Positions 4,269-26,669 of a stretch of DNA of 64,000 nucleotides are shown here, in pieces. The DNA comes from Escherichia virus TH58. How positions within the stretch are numbered: position 1 is the first letter of the stretch; every line of letters begins with the position of its first letter. Under the pieces are notes generated by a model. The model saw nothing but the letters and a program-made list of their open reading frames with translations, was not told where the DNA came from and did not search any database. The position numbers and the translations under genes were made by a program. Location: sequence record MT446423.1; one strand, written 5' to 3'.

Positions 4269-4732
4269 TGGATGCTATGTTATTTAAAATGTATTTGCTT
4301 GAAGCCAAGTCGTTTAAACATATACCAGTAGAAGATAAGACTCCACTGGAAATAGCTATTCTCATTAACAAAAGTCTAAATAACCCGCAATATATCGTAG
4401 AAGAATTCTGCAAATTGCAGATTCCTAAAGGTTACAAAATTCGTGTAGAGCGAGTTGGAGCTATTACTCGTTCTAAAAATTCTCCGTTTAGTCTTGAAGA
4501 AGGCATAAAGGACTTAGGTTATGAATCTACGGAAAATGCCGTTTATGTGAATCCTGAAAAGCGTTTAGACTTGTTTGAAAAGCGAGACCATAAGTATTTT
4601 GCCAAAAAATACTTTATTACATCATTAGCAGATTTAACCCATTTGCAACGAGCTATTTGGAAATTTTTTAAGACAAAAGGTGTAGCACTAGAAACATTCT
4701 CTGAACCTGCTAGTTTTTATCTCGGTGAATAA
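4268..4732 (+). CDS. hypothetical protein (occupies T4 mrh position)
   Basis: 154 aa ORF between soc and the Mod genes; positional only. Confidence 0.45.
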   Translation: MDAMLFKMYLLEAKSFKHIPVEDKTPLEIAILINKSLNNPQYIVEEFCKLQIPKGYKIRVERVGAITRSKNSPFSLEEGIKDLGYESTENAVYVNPEKRLDLFEKRDHKYFAKKYFITSLADLTHLQRAIWKFFKTKGVALETFSEPASFYLGE

Positions 4733-5129: not shown

Positions 5130-5711
5130 ATGACATGTCAATCTGAACTTCAAGAACGTGAATACCTAACAAATCTGATTGATAGCAAATTCACCCGCCA
5201 AGAACAAAACATTCTCTGGGCTTGCACTGATTCTAAGGAAGACCCGGATTTCCACTATGAATTAGACCATCTTGTTCGTAAGCATATGACTTCTACAGTA
5301 CCAGTAGAACTCTACCGTGGTGTAACTCCAGAAGAAGTAGAACGTCTTTCCCTTCTTTCTGTTGGATGTCATTGGTCTCCTGGACGAGTAACATCGTTCA
5401 CAACTGATTTCAGTACAGCTCGTCAATTCTCCGGGAGTTGGGAGTATCAGACGTACACTATTCTTAGTCTCAGGAATGCTCCATTCATTTTTGATTACTA
5501 CCAAAACATGATTAACATTGTACTTGCCGGAAAGAACCCTAAGCATGTTATGGAAGAAAAACGTGTTGACGTCCTAGATATGATTGAATCTGAACAAGAG
5601 TACATGGTCTCAGGTATCTCTAGATTTGAGATTGTGGAAATTGAAGACTTAGAATATGACCCTTTATCTCGATTATACAAAATCATTCATTTAAAAATGT
5701 TGAATTTTTAG
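5130..5711 (+). CDS. modB: Mod-family mono-ADP-ribosyltransferase (ModB position)
   Basis: R (LYRGV), S-x-S (FTTDFSTAR) and E-x-E (EQEYMV) motifs; GGAGG RBS; symbol assigned by T4 gene order only. Confidence 0.7.
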   Translation: MTCQSELQEREYLTNLIDSKFTRQEQNILWACTDSKEDPDFHYELDHLVRKHMTSTVPVELYRGVTPEEVERLSLLSVGCHWSPGRVTSFTTDFSTARQFSGSWEYQTYTILSLRNAPFIFDYYQNMINIVLAGKNPKHVMEEKRVDVLDMIESEQEYMVSGISRFEIVEIEDLEYDPLSRLYKIIHLKMLNF

Positions 5712-21439: not shown

Positions 21440-22765
21440 ATGCAATTGAATTCTCGTAATCTAAAAAGTATTATTGATAACGAAGCCTTAGCATATGCTA
21501 TGTACACCGTTGAAAACCGTGCAATCCCAAACATGATTGATGGATTTAAGCCGGTTCAACGTTTTGTAGTTCATCGTGCATTAGATTTGGCTCGTGGTAA
21601 TAAAGAAAAATTTCATAAACTTGCGTCAATTGCAGGTGGTGTAGCAGACCTTGGATATCATCATGGTGAAATCTCTGCGCAAGACGCAGGTGCTTTGATG
21701 GCTAATACTTGGAATAATAACTTTCCTCTGTTAGATGGTCAAGGAAACTTTGGTTCTAGAACAGTCCAAAAAGCTGCAGCATCTCGTTATATTTTTGCTC
21801 GTGTAAGTAAAAATTTCTATAACGTATATAAAGATACTGAATATGCTCCAGCTCATGAAGATAAAGAACACGTTCCACCAAAATTCTATCTTCCTATTAT
21901 TCCGACAGTTCTTTTGAATGGTGTCTCCGGTATTGCAACCGGTTATGCAACAAATATTCTGCCTCATAGTTTTAAATCGGTCAAAAAGGCGGTATTACAA
22001 GCTCTTCAAGGTAAAAATGTCACTAAGCCAAAAGTTGAATTCCCAGAATTCCGTGGTGAAGTGCATGAAGTTGATGGGCGTTATGAGATTCACGGAACAT
22101 ACAAGTTCACATCTCGTACTCAAATGCAGATAACTGAAATCCCATATAAATTCGACCGTGAAACGTATGTGAGTAAGGTTCTTGACCCGTTGGAAGACAA
22201 AGGTCTAATCTCATGGGAAGATGATTGTGGTGAACACGGCTTTGGGTTTAAGGTGAAGTTCCGTAAAGAGTACTCGCTTCCTGATGATGAAGAGCTACGT
22301 CATGAAAAAATCATGAAAGATTTTAGTCTCATCGAACGTCGCTCACAAAACATCACAGTGATTAATGAAAAGGGTAAATTAGCGGTCTACGATAACGTAG
22401 TGGACTTAATCAAAGATTTTGTTGAAGTCCGTAAGACTTACGTTCAGAAACGTATTGACAACAAAATCCTTGAATCTGAAAAAGCATTTAAACTGGCTTT
22501 TGCTAAGGCACACTTCATCAAAAAAGTTATCAGTGGCGAAATTGTGATTCAAGGCAAGACCCGTAAAGCTTTGACTGAAGAGCTAGCACAAATCGAAATG
22601 TACAAAGAACATGTCGATAAACTGGTGGGTCTTAACATCTTCCATATCACTTCTGACGAAGCACGTAAACTGGCAGAAGAAGCTAAAGCTAAGAAAGAAG
22701 AAAATGAGTATTGGAAGTCTACTGATGTTGTGACAGAGTACACTAAAGACTTGGAGGCGCTTTGA
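21440..22765 (+). CDS. 52: DNA topoisomerase II medium (GyrA-like) subunit gp52
   Basis: 441 aa; N-terminus with ENRAIPNMIDGFKPVQRF GyrA-like block. Confidence 0.9.
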   Translation: MQLNSRNLKSIIDNEALAYAMYTVENRAIPNMIDGFKPVQRFVVHRALDLARGNKEKFHKLASIAGGVADLGYHHGEISAQDAGALMANTWNNNFPLLDGQGNFGSRTVQKAAASRYIFARVSKNFYNVYKDTEYAPAHEDKEHVPPKFYLPIIPTVLLNGVSGIATGYATNILPHSFKSVKKAVLQALQGKNVTKPKVEFPEFRGEVHEVDGRYEIHGTYKFTSRTQMQITEIPYKFDRETYVSKVLDPLEDKGLISWEDDCGEHGFGFKVKFRKEYSLPDDEELRHEKIMKDFSLIERRSQNITVINEKGKLAVYDNVVDLIKDFVEVRKTYVQKRIDNKILESEKAFKLAFAKAHFIKKVISGEIVIQGKTRKALTEELAQIEMYKEHVDKLVGLNIFHITSDEARKLAEEAKAKKEENEYWKSTDVVTEYTKDLEAL

Positions 22766-22841
22766 GTGCCCTAGCCTTAGGATTTCTCGGTGCAATAGCT
22801 GCACTAGTGATTTGGCTGTATTGGTTAGACAAACATGATTA

Positions 22842-22876
22842 GGGAGCTTCGGCTCCCTTTTGTGCATTTTTTTCTC
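22842..22876 (+). terminator. rho-independent terminator after gene 52
   Basis: GGGAGC-TTCG-GCTCCC hairpin plus T-rich tail. Confidence 0.65.
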
Positions 22877-22884
22877 ACAAAACA

Positions 22885-22913
22885 GTTTACATGTGCTTCA
22901 AACATGATATTAT
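22885..22913 (+). promoter_or_regulatory. T4-type early promoter upstream of motA
   Basis: GTTTAC, 17-nt spacer, TATTAT, TAGACCTATC box. Confidence 0.55.
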
Positions 22914-22952
22914 AGACCTATCAAAACAAAACAACCAAATTGGAGAAATAAA

Positions 22953-23585
22953 ATGTCTAAAGTTACTTACATCATCAAAGCTTCTGAAAACGCTCTGAAT
23001 GAAAAAACTGCTGCAATAATGGTTTATATCATTAAGAACAACTTCACCACTGCTGCCAATGTCCGTGAAGCTCTGGAAGCAGAATACAATGCATCAGTTG
23101 TTAACTCTAACATTGGTGTATTGATTAAGAAAGGTTTAGTCGAAAAATCAGGTGATGGACTTGTAGCAACAGGCGAAGCAATGGATATTATCCAAAAAGC
23201 CGCAGACCTCTTTGCCCAAGAAAATGCTCCAGAACTTCTTCAGAAACGTAACACCAGAAAAGCACGTGGAGTTACTCCTGAAATGCATGAATTAGCAAAC
23301 TTTGTTTTTGAAAATATTAAAGATAAAGTTGAAGTTAAAGAAATTGGCGAAAACCGTAGTAACTTAGAAGTTCGATTTGCAAAACGAGTTCTAGGTATTC
23401 GCCAGATCGAAATTCGTCGAGATGGTTCTCTTAGAATCTTTGCGTACAACATGTCAGAAACTGAATCAAAGCTGTTTACTTCTCTTGAAAATGATGTTAA
23501 GATTAAAATCGGTGGTAAATATACTTACATTGACTTCCCTAATGTGTCCAAAGAAATCATTACCCTTGTAACTAACGTACTGTGA
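22953..23585 (+). CDS. motA: middle-transcription activator MotA
   Basis: 210 aa; MSKVTYIIKAS..NSNIGVLIKKGLVEKSGDGL matches T4 MotA. Confidence 0.85.
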   Translation: MSKVTYIIKASENALNEKTAAIMVYIIKNNFTTAANVREALEAEYNASVVNSNIGVLIKKGLVEKSGDGLVATGEAMDIIQKAADLFAQENAPELLQKRNTRKARGVTPEMHELANFVFENIKDKVEVKEIGENRSNLEVRFAKRVLGIRQIEIRRDGSLRIFAYNMSETESKLFTSLENDVKIKIGGKYTYIDFPNVSKEIITLVTNVL

Positions 23586-23595
23586 GGAATACATA

Positions 23596-23925
23596 ATGAA
23601 TAAGCTGAATATTATTAACGAACTTCGTAAATGCGCAGAACCTACTCAGGAAGGATGGGATATTTGGTACCACGGAGCTTATCTTGGAACTATTGTAAAG
23701 ATTAAGACTGGTAAATACATGATTATTCGTGAATGTAAAGATGCTCCAGTAGGTATTCGCAATAATTTCATGGCAGCGATAAGTTCCTTTACAGATTCAG
23801 CTTACGAAATTTACCTTGCTGATTATAAAGAATTCCAGGAATCTCAACCAGTTATTCGCTCAATTGGTGTTAACAAAGCTCAACAGAAAACTTTGTGGCA
23901 ACGTATTAAAGGATGGTTTAAATGA
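23596..23925 (+). CDS. hypothetical protein
   Basis: 109 aa ORF in motA-asiA variable cluster. Confidence 0.45.
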   Translation: MNKLNIINELRKCAEPTQEGWDIWYHGAYLGTIVKIKTGKYMIIRECKDAPVGIRNNFMAAISSFTDSAYEIYLADYKEFQESQPVIRSIGVNKAQQKTLWQRIKGWFK

Positions 23926-24215
23926 ATATAAAGACAATCGAAGAGCAGTATAAAGATTACTCTAAGTTGGTTCATTCAGTAAAAACAATCAGCATTATTA
24001 ATCTTCAGGTTAATAATTTAACTCTTAATTTTGGTAATGAACTGGCTAAATATTGTTGTATTATTAATACAAATCTAACACCAGTTGATATGTATGGTTC
24101 ACGCCAAACTGCTGATATCAAGATTTCAGGTGAATCACTGAATGATGTATTAGATACCGCCGCCAAGATTCGAGCTTTCTGTGCAGTTAACAATTATGAG
24201 GCCTTAATCAAATGA
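23922..24215 (+). CDS. hypothetical protein
   Basis: 97 aa; ATGA coupling. Confidence 0.45.
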
Positions 24216-24673
24216 AAACTTTTAAAGAGCGCCTTGAACTTTTAGACCAGGCTTTATCGCGTGAGACTCCTGAAAGCCTAGCAGCTAAATTACAGTCCTA
24301 TGGTTATAATTATTCTGCTGATGATGTAATGAATGAAGTTCCTGAAATCTGTTGGCAAACGTGCTATTGGAATAATGACCAAAAAGTTCAACGTGTTATA
24401 GTATGTGCAGCTAATAGGTTTAAATTGAAGAGTGGTGGAACTCTGGTTATTCCTGGAGTTCGTCATTACTCTAAAGATATGGCTGAAGTACTTGATATAG
24501 TTGGTCCTCAATTAGTCTCGCAACAAGTTTGTGGTGACGACCAAGGCTTTATCGATCAATACTCTAATTACTGGACTCGTGAAGAAGCAATGATTATTGC
24601 AACGTATGCTGGACAGGTACGTATTGAACGTGGCGGAAGTGAGAAAGAACTTTATTCAGAGGACCTTTATTAA
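24212..24673 (+). CDS. hypothetical protein
   Basis: 153 aa; ATGA coupling. Confidence 0.45.
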
Positions 24674-24954
24674 TGAATATTAAACAACTGCAGAAAGATG
24701 CTATTGAATCACGTATCCAAGATATCAAACGTCTTAATCATATGATGGAAGAAAACTATGGTATGTATGCTAATCAGCCTGGTTGGGATGCTTTAGACCA
24801 TCCTTATTTGGTTAATTTATGTAAAGGTGATACGTTAGCAATTATTCGTGATGGGTTAAAACCTTTCTTGCGTGACATGTATATTAAAATGAACGAAGAA
24901 ATTATTAGCTCGTTGCAATATCAATTAAGGAAATTAGATGATGAGAATAATTGA
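24673..24954 (+). CDS. hypothetical protein
   Basis: 93 aa. Confidence 0.45.
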   Translation: MNIKQLQKDAIESRIQDIKRLNHMMEENYGMYANQPGWDALDHPYLVNLCKGDTLAIIRDGLKPFLRDMYIKMNEEIISSLQYQLRKLDDENN

Positions 24955-25156
24955 TTCTAAAGCAGATTATTTTAATTCTGTTAATGATAAGAATAAAGCT
25001 TTAATTCGTCACTTTATTACTGAGATGGGATATACCGACTCTAAAGATTTGAAAGAGCACATTGTCGAATGTTCTGTGGCTAAAAAGTTTTCTTTCACAG
25101 ACAAATGTTTAAACGAGGTTATAAATCATTATGAACAATCTTGTAGCAAAACATGA
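24938..25156 (+). CDS. hypothetical protein
   Basis: 72 aa, overlaps previous ORF end. Confidence 0.35.
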   Translation: MMRIIDSKADYFNSVNDKNKALIRHFITEMGYTDSKDLKEHIVECSVAKKFSFTDKCLNEVINHYEQSCSKT

Positions 25157-25239
25157 TTTCAATAAGGCTTCCGTCCATAAGGACAAGAAGAAATCAGAAC
25201 TTCAATCTAAACGTAAACAAAAACATAAGGGTAAAGACT

Positions 25240-25539
25240 ATGCTTACTAAAATCAAAGAAAATCCTGCCACTGAACTTGTTATTCGATGTGAAGAACTTG
25301 CAGAGCTTTATCAGGTTAACCGAGAAGTGTATCGTAGTGTTGTTGCAGATATGGCAGACGAAGTATGTTCTCGTATTCCTTTTAGTGTCGATTTCAATCA
25401 CATGAAGCCTGGTGAAATCACTATCGTCTTTGGTTCTGACTATACTGAAGAACGGGCTCTTAATGCCCTAGAATATGAAATGTCATTCTTTGACATACAG
25501 GACTATATTGATAGTTATAAGGAACGATATGAGTCATAA
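25240..25539 (+). CDS. hypothetical acidic protein (candidate DNA-mimic; Arn position)
   Basis: internal ATG 25240 after AAGGG RBS; Asp/Glu-rich; positional guess. Confidence 0.4.
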   Translation: MLTKIKENPATELVIRCEELAELYQVNREVYRSVVADMADEVCSRIPFSVDFNHMKPGEITIVFGSDYTEERALNALEYEMSFFDIQDYIDSYKERYES

Positions 25540-25693
25540 TCTTCAGAACGTAGTAGAGGCCGAACGTGAGCGTGAGGCTTTAGTCTATAATGAACTATTA
25601 GTTCCGTTCTTGGCCTTACACTCGTACGAACAAGAAGACTACATTGATTACGTTAAAAGCGTAGAAAAAGCCGTTTACAATCAACACCGATAA
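25529..25693 (+). CDS. hypothetical small protein
   Basis: ATG 25529 overlapping previous stop. Confidence 0.3.
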   Translation: MSHNLQNVVEAEREREALVYNELLVPFLALHSYEQEDYIDYVKSVEKAVYNQHR

Positions 25694-25736
25694 TGGTACT
25701 ATATCCATATCAACTAAGTGGAATGAATAAAACGTT

Positions 25737-26009
25737 ATGAATAAAGATATTGAAATCGTGCGTGAAATTATTACTATTGCTTCTATTTTGATTAAATTCT
25801 CTAGGGAAGATATTGTTGAAGACCGAGCAAGTTTCATCGGATTCTTGAATGAGATTGGAATTAAAAAAGATGGTCGGCAGCTAAATCAGAATTCGTTCAG
25901 AAAACTAATTACAAATTTAACTGCCGAAGAAAAGAAAACACTGATTAGTGAATTCAATGAAGGTTTTGAAAATATTTATCGTCATTTAGCGATGTATTCT
26001 AACAACTAA
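25737..26009 (+). CDS. asiA: anti-sigma70 factor AsiA
   Basis: 90 aa; MNK.I..VREIIT.ASILIKFSREDIVE.RA.FI.FLNEIG nearly colinear with T4 AsiA. Confidence 0.85.
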   Translation: MNKDIEIVREIITIASILIKFSREDIVEDRASFIGFLNEIGIKKDGRQLNQNSFRKLITNLTAEEKKTLISEFNEGFENIYRHLAMYSNN

Positions 26010-26669
26010 TTATTTAGCCCTTCCTAGTATTCGGACCGCTTGGTTGCATATAGCCGCTAAGCGATCCTCCTCAAGTATATTACTCCCCTTATACCAATAC
26101 ATCGTCACAGTTCCAGCATAGATGTTATCCAAATTAAAGTATGGGCAACTATACATATAAGAAAGTTCGGCAGTCTTAGATTTTGTAGGCAAAAATGCAA
26201 ATTCTGATTTAGATGAGAAATGACGGCCACTTAAATGAATTATATATTCATTAGCCGTTTTATCCACCGGGAATCCGCCAAGGGACTTTTCAGAAATTGT
26301 GCTAGGTAGTTTGCCTTCATAAGCTATAAGGTCGACGAAATAATTTAAGTTTTTAGGTCTGAAAGAATACACAGCACTAAAATCTGCACCAGATGAGATA
26401 TGAACTATTTGCAGTTGTTCTAGAGCCGCAGATTCAAAACGTAAAGCTCGTTCTTTTTGGATTACTTCAGTATAAGTATCATACTTAGCTCTTACATAAT
26501 AATCCAGCAAAATACTTCCTTTGTACCATATTAGTGCCATTAGGAACAAAAGAATAATTACCGCTACTCGGGATATTAAGACTTTCCCAGTAGCGTTATC
26601 TTTGAAAATACGATCTAGCAACCCAAATAGAATATCACTAGGCGAAAATGATACTTTTGGTGTTGCCAT
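26010..26669 (-). CDS. t: holin T
   Basis: 219 aa; near-colinear with T4 T holin. Confidence 0.9.
   Translation of the reverse strand: MATPKVSFSPSDILFGLLDRIFKDNATGKVLISRVAVIILLFLMALIWYKGSILLDYYVRAKYDTYTEVIQKERALRFESAALEQLQIVHISSGADFSAVYSFRPKNLNYFVDLIAYEGKLPSTISEKSLGGFPVDKTANEYIIHLSGRHFSSKSEFAFLPTKSKTAELSYMYSCPYFNLDNIYAGTVTMYWYKGSNILEEDRLAAICNQAVRILGRAK

Follow-up and report, generated by a model that had tools for sequence, protein, structure and literature searches.

The gene block between motA and asiA of Escherichia virus TH58 encodes a probable, highly diverged homologue of the DNA mimic Arn

This study addressed what is encoded by the compact gene block between motA and asiA in a 64,000-nucleotide (nt) stretch of Escherichia virus TH58 DNA (MT446423.1; hereafter, the window), and whether one of its products, the acidic protein ORF6, is a counterpart of the anti-restriction protein Arn of phage T4. 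The open reading frames (ORFs) of the block are labeled ORF1 to ORF7 and ORF5b, and positions are those of the window (Table 1). Megablast comparison of the region 22900-26100 with 50,697 phage records returned 747 matching records, and the top matches were Mosigvirus genomes, such as those of E. coli O157 typing phage 3 and ATK47, with approximately 95% identity, 91% coverage, and the same gene order. The window belongs to a Mosigvirus, an RB69-like T-even phage. Gene 52, motA, the block, and asiA follow one another on the plus strand and are followed on the minus strand by holin gene t, gp38, and gp37, which is the T-even arrangement.

Relationship of ORF6 to T4 Arn

A first-pass annotation, made from the sequence letters, had described ORF6 as strongly rich in aspartate and glutamate and had guessed from its position that it occupies the place of T4 Arn. 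The composition bears out the first statement. Aspartate and glutamate together account for 21% of the 99 amino acids (aa) of ORF6, its net charge is -11, and its isoelectric point (pI) is 4.37; the corresponding values for T4 Arn (92 aa) are 17%, -9, and 4.55. Among the 93 non-overlapping window ORFs of at least 60 aa, only three have an acidic fraction as high as that of ORF6, and a single one has as much net negative charge per residue. The family around ORF6 is narrow, comprising six clusters at no less than 83% identity in an index of 5.8 billion proteins. Its PHROG family is phrog_8202, which is labeled "unknown function" and is separate from the Arn family phrog_3151, labeled "inhibitor of MrcBC restriction".

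The structure of ORF6 was predicted with AlphaFold2, and the resulting model had a mean predicted local distance difference test score (pLDDT) of 87.9. When this model was searched with Foldseek, the T4 Arn structure 3WX4 ranked first, with template modeling (TM) scores of 0.67/0.68 and an expect value (E) of 5e-3, and every other match had a TM score of 0.47 or lower when normalized to the query. The structure 3WX4 ranked first by a clear margin in two independent structure-comparison methods, and the model of ORF6 has the three-dimensional fold of Arn. The first-pass annotation had stated that a fold unrelated to known DNA mimics would speak against its guess; the opposite was found.

Sequence intermediates lead to the same family. 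An exhaustive HMMER search of 1.84 billion proteins with an ORF6 profile returned six matches, including P0007 (1e-36) and P0011, a metagenomic protein of 91 aa (4.9e-7). The remaining four (P0008, P0009, P0010, and P0012) were rejected as spurious, since each is a long protein that aligned in 5-14 separate stretches; on reading, P0010 and P0012 proved to be internally repetitive. P0011 is 30% identical to ORF6 (E 3e-16) and, in BLASTP, 33% identical to T4 Arn (E 7e-11), and its sole match in the PDB was 3wx4_A (E 4.1e-6). P0007, a member of the ORF6 family, matched the Arn family phrog_3151 at 4.6e-6 over its full length, and T4 Arn in turn matched the ORF6 family phrog_8202 at 5.4e-3; these cross-matches between the two families are full-length and collinear. 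The best PDB sequence for a profile of ORF6 and P0011 was 3wx4_A (E 1.1e-4), and alignment of the bridged ORF6 profile with T4 and T2 Arn by hhalign gave a probability of 83% and an E of 8.9e-6 over 83 columns. The C-terminal motif [FY][DE][IL]xDY[IF][DE] is common to all three classes of Arn, namely the T4, ORF6, and P0011-like types. A scan of IMG/VR with the Arn-superfamily alignment recovered a single locus, with a 100%-identical ORF6 homologue and no added diversity.

The genomic position agrees. The slot that ORF6 fills, between the DUF7230 ORF and asiA.1/asiA, is the one in which arn lies in T4 and T2. The short contig that carries P0011 covers only the downstream half of the locus, in which P0011 is followed by an asiA.1-like ORF, asiA, and the convergent holin gene. 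On the basis of the fold match, the intermediate sequences, and the synteny, ORF6 is very probably a true, highly diverged homologue of T4 Arn and, as predicted from this, probably a DNA mimic of the Arn family. In homology and fold, the positional guess thus proved correct, by virtue of the bridge P0011, the 3WX4 match, and the shared slot.

According to a review, T4 Arn is a DNA mimic with two activities, inhibition of McrBC and binding to H-NS (PMC12707154). By analogy, ORF6 would take the Arn alpha/beta fold, dimerize, and present an acidic, DNA-like surface, which would fill the DNA-binding site of a host defense protein early in infection. The default candidate for this protein would be the McrB subunit of the modification-dependent enzyme McrBC, and blocking McrB would protect the hydroxymethylcytosine DNA of the phage before its modification with sugar. 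The eight block genes would probably be read together with motA and asiA as one polycistronic early/middle mRNA from the motA promoter, which agrees with the single arn transcript of T2; a preprint reports that arn.4-arn.3-arn.2-arn.1-arn of T2 are detected as one transcript, of whose products only Arn has a known function (10.64898/2026.06.19.733364). The overlaps of 1-26 nt, together with a Shine-Dalgarno sequence for each gene, would couple the translation of the block. T7 Ocr and ArdA resemble ORF6: both are small early proteins with a strongly acidic composition, for which occupation of the DNA-binding sites of defense enzymes has been proposed, and they are non-homologous to Arn (PMC12707154). 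They act on Type I restriction-modification and BREX systems, not on McrBC, and ORF6 matches only Arn in fold searches.

Several results weigh against this interpretation. Direct comparison of ORF6 with T4 Arn by BLASTP was not significant (21% identity over 38 aa; E 0.014 with a database of 9 sequences), phmmer of ORF6 against the PDB yielded no 3WX4 match, and hhalign of ORF6 with Arn using shallow profiles without the bridge gave a probability of 2% and an E of 0.025. The Pfam family DM_Arn (PF22134; gathering threshold, 26 bits) did not match ORF6 at E ≤ 1. T4 Arn scores 186.7 bits with this model and the bridge P0011 only 16 bits (E 0.015), which indicates that ORF6 lies outside the boundary of the present DM_Arn model. 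The direct sequence routes failed, and only structure and bridging sequence resolved the identity of ORF6; the AlphaFold2 alignment behind the structure was itself shallow, with just seven near-identical sequences. Co-transcription from the motA promoter is read from consensus scans only. With regard to the target, PUA-Cal-HAD is reported in a preprint to be blocked by T4 Arn as well but not by T2 Arn, which has three differing positions, and the substitution N70S alone is reported to abolish the activity of T4 Arn against it (PMC12871103). The ORF6 residue aligned with N70 is T69. Because of the sensitivity to N70S and an identity between ORF6 and T4 Arn of about 17-20%, the target of ORF6 cannot be assumed.

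Allele classes of the arn slot and candidate targets

Distribution of the alleles was examined across the phage records. T4-type Arn was found in 485 records, all at least 88% identical, the ORF6 type in 165 records at 80% identity or higher, and a third, P0011-like type in 13 records at about 31-33% identity. The arn gene is absent in phage SP18 and in contig L004. Because distinct alleles exist alongside loci without arn, the slot behaves as an allele-replacement and presence/absence locus. We consider it an even chance that McrBC is a main target of ORF6.

The alternative that fares best accepts the Arn fold and the DNA mimicry of ORF6 and proposes that the protein has been retargeted from McrBC to another DNA-binding host factor or defense system, such as H-NS, a PUA-Cal-HAD-type module, or another type IV restriction enzyme, so that the three arn alleles would reflect diversifying selection by different host defenses. 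The three allele classes are discrete, share one slot, and have no intermediates among sequenced phages, and some related loci lack any arn; T4 Arn has at least three reported partners, a single residue switches its PUA-Cal-HAD activity, and ORF6 carries T69 at this position. However, small acidic proteins may diverge near-neutrally if only fold and charge matter, and McrBC is widespread among the E. coli strains that these phages infect. Retargeting is therefore a tentative reading, possible but on the unlikely side. A broader proposal is that the T-even arn slot holds at least three mutually unrecognizable classes of alleles that share one DNA-mimic fold (the T4, RB69/ORF6, and Dhaka/Gaprivervirus types), each tuned to its own set of host DNA-binding defense proteins, and that the motA-asiA interval is a swappable anti-defense island. 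We put this forward as a speculative and somewhat doubtful idea. If it is true, the ORF6 class would inhibit something besides or instead of McrBC, and ORF2, Arn.1, the AsiA.1-type protein, and possibly Arn.3 would be further counter-defense factors.

A different view places the block with MotA and AsiA as a set of host-takeover or gene-expression modulators that act on RNA polymerase, the nucleoid, or ribosomes, with the Arn types working mainly through H-NS. The position of the block, flanked by motA and asiA within what appears to be a single transcription unit, the H-NS binding of T4 Arn, and the extremely basic 39-aa DUF7230 protein, which is consistent with nucleic-acid binding, fit this view; however, the sole block gene with a demonstrated function is anti-restriction, and the presence or absence of cassettes and the allele swaps (ORF2, arn.1, arn, and asiA.1 types) are typical of arms-race genes. 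We regard it as unlikely. That the likeness of ORF6 to Arn is convergence on a generic small alpha/beta fold, with ORF6 being, for example, a transcription or replication accessory factor, is highly improbable: the failed direct sequence tests and a Foldseek E of just 5e-3 would allow it, but the clear first rank of 3WX4 in both structure comparisons, the significance of P0011 in both directions in database-wide searches, the full-length and collinear PHROG cross-matches, the identical genomic slot in four lineages, and the common C-terminal DY motif all contradict it.

Under the preferred interpretation of ORF6 as an Arn-family DNA mimic, the other seven genes would be accessory genes that are either conserved (arn.4, arn.3, arn.2, and DUF7230) or cassette-like (ORF2, arn.1, and the asiA.1 type), and their most plausible roles likewise lie in host takeover or counter-defense. 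Recognition of the RB69-type Arn homologue appears to be new, and a literature search found no paper linking RB69, McrBC, and Arn. Arn is one of the few characterized phage DNA mimics, and the ORF6-type proteins form a naturally occurring set of strongly divergent Arn alleles with which the retargeting of DNA mimics can be studied. The finding also corrects annotation. Homologues of arn.1-arn.4 are labeled "anti-restriction nuclease" (in GenBank, for example in the locus L002, and in phrog_4452, the family of ORF5), a label that comes without evidence and appears to have been carried over from the arn.N gene names, whereas the true Arn homologue is unlabeled; among the matches listed, ORF6-type genes (178 phage records) are described only as "hypothetical protein". 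The rest of the block consists of known T4 genes of unknown function, for which the advance is incremental.

Organization of the block and the T-even arn operon

The seven ORFs that the first-pass annotation had placed on the plus strand between motA and asiA were all recovered at its coordinates. The count of seven was one short, since an eighth ORF (ORF5b) fills the 83-nt gap at 25157-25239. The block reads arn.4, ORF2, arn.3, arn.2, arn.1, DUF7230, arn-like, and asiA.1-like, and its eight genes leave no non-coding DNA across 23596-25693. The overlapping stop and start codons that had been described were read directly from the sequence. ORF1 and ORF2, as well as ORF2 and ORF3, overlap by 4 nt in ATGA, and ORF3 and ORF4 by 1 nt in TAATG; ORF4 and ORF5 overlap by 17 nt, ORF5b shares 26 nt with ORF5 and 11 nt with ORF6, and ORF6 and ORF7 overlap by 11 nt. 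A Shine-Dalgarno sequence of the GAGG/AAGGA type lies 5-12 nt upstream of every start. The start of ORF6 at 25240 is backed by such a sequence and by the N-termini of homologues. Longer forms starting at 25153 (ORF6) and 25475 (ORF7) were rejected, as these starts lack a Shine-Dalgarno sequence and the homologues begin at 25240 and 25529.

Table 1. Genes of the motA-asiA interval and its flanks (positions of the window)
Feature	Description	Coordinates	Strand	Evidence
gene 52	Topoisomerase II medium subunit	21440-22765	+	ORF map
motA	Middle-transcription activator, left flank	22953-23585	+	Pfam MotA_activ 2.4e-39, MotCF 2.1e-08; 51% identity to T4 MotA
ORF1	Arn.4, full-length, 109 aa, basic, pI 9.3	23596-23925	+	
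ORF2	Rare cassette gene, 97 aa	23922-24215	+	
ORF3	Arn.3, 153 aa	24212-24673	+	
ORF4	Arn.2, 93 aa	24673-24954	+	
ORF5	Arn.1, full-length, 72 aa	24938-25156	+	
ORF5b	DUF7230 protein, 39 aa, very basic	25131-25250	+	
ORF6	Probable diverged Arn-family protein, 99 aa, acidic; predicted DNA mimic / anti-restriction	25240-25539	+	
ORF7	AsiA.1-like small acidic protein, 54 aa	25529-25693	+	
asiA	Anti-sigma-70 factor, right flank	25737-26009	+	Pfam AsiA 2.4e-32; 73% identity to T4 AsiA
t	Holin gene, convergent, abuts asiA	26010-26669	-	

All seven ORFs of the first-pass annotation matched PHROG families (E 1e-15 to 1e-69), as did ORF5b (phrog_1359, 3.8e-22), and the pairwise ratios of nonsynonymous to synonymous substitution rates (dN/dS) of ORF1-ORF5 and ORF5b relative to diverged relatives were 0.05-0.21. 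These matches and low ratios indicate that the block ORFs are real genes and not chance ORFs. No NCBIfam family matched any block ORF, and PDB sequence searches with ORF1, ORF2, ORF4, and ORF5 returned nothing significant. The Pfam families Phage_T4_Y16F, T4_Y16D, and Phage_T4_Y16C are recorded on homologues of block genes.

The T4 and T2 loci are colinear with the window in the order arn.4, arn.3, arn.2, arn.1, DUF7230, arn, and asiA.1. In this same order, ORF1 and T4 Arn.4 share 97% identity across the 68 aa of the T4 annotation, ORF3 is 74.5% identical to Arn.3, ORF4 is 41% identical to Arn.2 (E 1e-20), and ORF5 is 74% identical to Arn.1 over the annotated 43 aa. The block is the Mosigvirus (RB69-type) allele of the T-even arn operon, and its gene set was already known; the description "uncharacterized" holds true for function. 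Several differences set the window apart from T4 and T2. It carries the extra ORF2 between arn.4 and arn.3, which has no T4 counterpart. Its arn.4 and arn.1 are full-length with ATG starts, whereas T4 arn.4 has ATA, T2 arn.4 has a frameshift, and both phages have TTG at arn.1. Its arn and asiA.1 alleles are of diverged types.

The arn.1 frames of T4 and T2 are open over all 72 codons from TTG, with a dN/dS of 0.15 for the N-terminal 29 codons, and the stretch upstream of arn.4 in these phages, annotated as intergenic, has a dN/dS of 0.11. The stretches upstream of both genes align in frame, codon by codon, with the longer reading frames found in the window and in RB32; they lie at 4306-4393 and 5335-5457 (-) of the T4 locus L001 and at 947-1054 and 1993-2085 of the T2 locus L010. 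These coding-like signatures suggest that the annotated short forms of arn.1 and arn.4 in T4 and T2 may be truncations or mis-annotations.

The T2 transcript is reported to contain an ArcZ pairing site at the 3' end of arn.2 and, in the intergenic region between arn.2 and arn.1, a motif for RNase E (10.64898/2026.06.19.733364). In both T4 and T2, the ArcZ pairing site is CCAGGGAAAT at arn.2 +285..+294, and the RNase E motif GCATT lies 11 nt before the annotated ATG of arn.1 (T4 L001 4377-4400 (-); T2 L010 1980-2095). Neither CCAGGGAAAT nor GCATT is present in arn.2/arn.1 of the window, where AAGGAAAT followed by ATGATG and TCACT stand instead (24925-24945 and 25005-25025). The window, in contrast to T2, has no arn.2-arn.1 intergenic region and carries at this position the Shine-Dalgarno sequence and the ATGATG start of full-length arn.1. 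The seed that we took to be that of ArcZ, which reproduces the coordinates of the T2 preprint, formed its best duplex here at -14.8 kcal/mol, which is less stable than the mean of -18.4 for the background of the window. Because the pairing site and GCATT are replaced, ArcZ control is probably absent in this phage, and the regulation by ArcZ and RNase E described for the arn transcript of T2 would not be universal.

Remaining genes and expression signals

ORF1 matched phrog_1594 (2e-53), and its homologue in contig L004 carries the Pfam family PF26821 (Phage_T4_Y16F). Over its last 226 nt, ORF1 has 95.6% identity to T4 and 75.7% to the nearest Mosigvirus. This contrast in identity points to a recombination breakpoint near 23650-23700. 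The mosaic junction spans 23650-24215 and consists of the T4-like 3' end of arn.4 and a 291-bp ORF2 cassette, after which the sequence returns to 97% Mosigvirus identity; recombination with a Tequatrovirus-like donor is the probable source of ORF2. ORF2 is absent from O157 typing phage 3, ATK47, and an IMG/VR contig, and it constitutes the unaligned 9% in the comparisons with Mosigvirus genomes. Its relatives in the 5.8-billion-protein index are only four protein clusters (61-94% identity) from metagenome assemblies, and those whose contigs were read occupy the same arn.4/arn.3 slot. Distant relatives at 37% identity or lower occur in 25 phage records, again in this slot in all inspected loci. 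ORF2 matched phrog_14178 (1e-15) and has a dN/dS of 0.13 relative to contig L004, and it had no match in Pfam, NCBIfam, or the PDB. Elsewhere, the slot is empty in T4, contains a 51-aa ORF in RB32, and contains a 112-aa distant homologue of ORF2 in SP18.

The Cys content of ORF3 (Arn.3) had been pointed out in the first-pass annotation. The four Cys residues are present, but none is invariant among 47 homologues, no CxxC-type motif was found, and in some homologues S or A stands in place of C65; a Cys-based metal-binding protein was therefore rejected, and the remark has no functional support. The conserved part of Arn.3 is a C-terminal core of approximately 110 aa, represented in 130 clusters, with the motifs AA(NR), RH, QGFxD, RxxA, Q, and LxSE..Y. 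Its invariant residues are A66, A67, R84, H85, Q111, G112, F113, D115, R123, A126, Q135, L147, S149, E150, and Y153, and the polar ones among them look enzyme-like, which is only an impression. The Arn.3 profile matched nothing in the PDB below E 0.9 and gave no convincing fold match.

ORF4 matched phrog_1844 (1e-40), and its homologue in contig L004 carries PF26819 (Phage_T4_Y16C). ORF7 matched phrog_5245 (2.6e-31) and lies directly upstream of asiA, as does AsiA.1, with which it has only the N-terminal approximately 28 residues in common; the family of T4 AsiA.1, phrog_3762, cross-matches phrog_5245 at 2.6e-4.

ORF5b contains 13 lysine and arginine residues versus 4 aspartate and glutamate residues. 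It matched the Pfam family DUF7230 (PF23876) above the gathering threshold, with 49.3 bits versus a cutoff of 27 (E 5.4e-13). In tblastn, ORF5b was found in 1267 phage records, including those of Klebsiella, Enterobacter, and Aeromonas phages, more than any other block gene searched in this manner. Its dN/dS of 0.05-0.08 indicates strong purifying selection, and the ORF is kept in loci that lack both arn.1 and arn. The corresponding ORF of T4 (L001 4081-4200 (-)) is unannotated in the T4 RefSeq record; it is annotated in T2 and some other records. The lysine-rich composition and "KGK-Y" motif resemble those of ArfA, and the reading of ORF5b as an ArfA-like ribosome-rescue peptide was rejected for lack of support, as ORF5b had no match to Pfam ArfA at E ≤ 1 and none in the PDB at E ≤ 10.

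Expression signals were scanned in the region 22700-26100. The strict search found no MotA-box middle promoter in this region, the block included, and Rfam returned no credible match, the sole one being a plant microRNA family (E 0.07). The numbers of sigma-70-like and terminator-like sites in the region were not above the shuffled expectation. The best sigma-70 consensus match was a candidate promoter upstream of motA at 22886-22913 (+), TTTACA-16-TG-TATTAT, which agrees at 10 of 12 positions and has an extended -10 TG; judged by this match, transcription of the unit that spans the block is likely to begin here. A second promoter-like site, TTTACA-17-TG-TACTAT, lies at 25674-25702 in the 3' end of ORF7 just upstream of asiA and, as a consensus match only, could give asiA a promoter of its own. 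Between gene 52 and the motA promoter, a perfect GC-rich hairpin, AGGGAGC-TTCG-GCTCCCT (+ strand), is located at 22841-22858. The scan flagged this hairpin on the minus strand only. The ATK47 annotation places a plus-strand rho-independent terminator just past gene 52, which probably corresponds to this hairpin and would bound the motA-asiA unit upstream.

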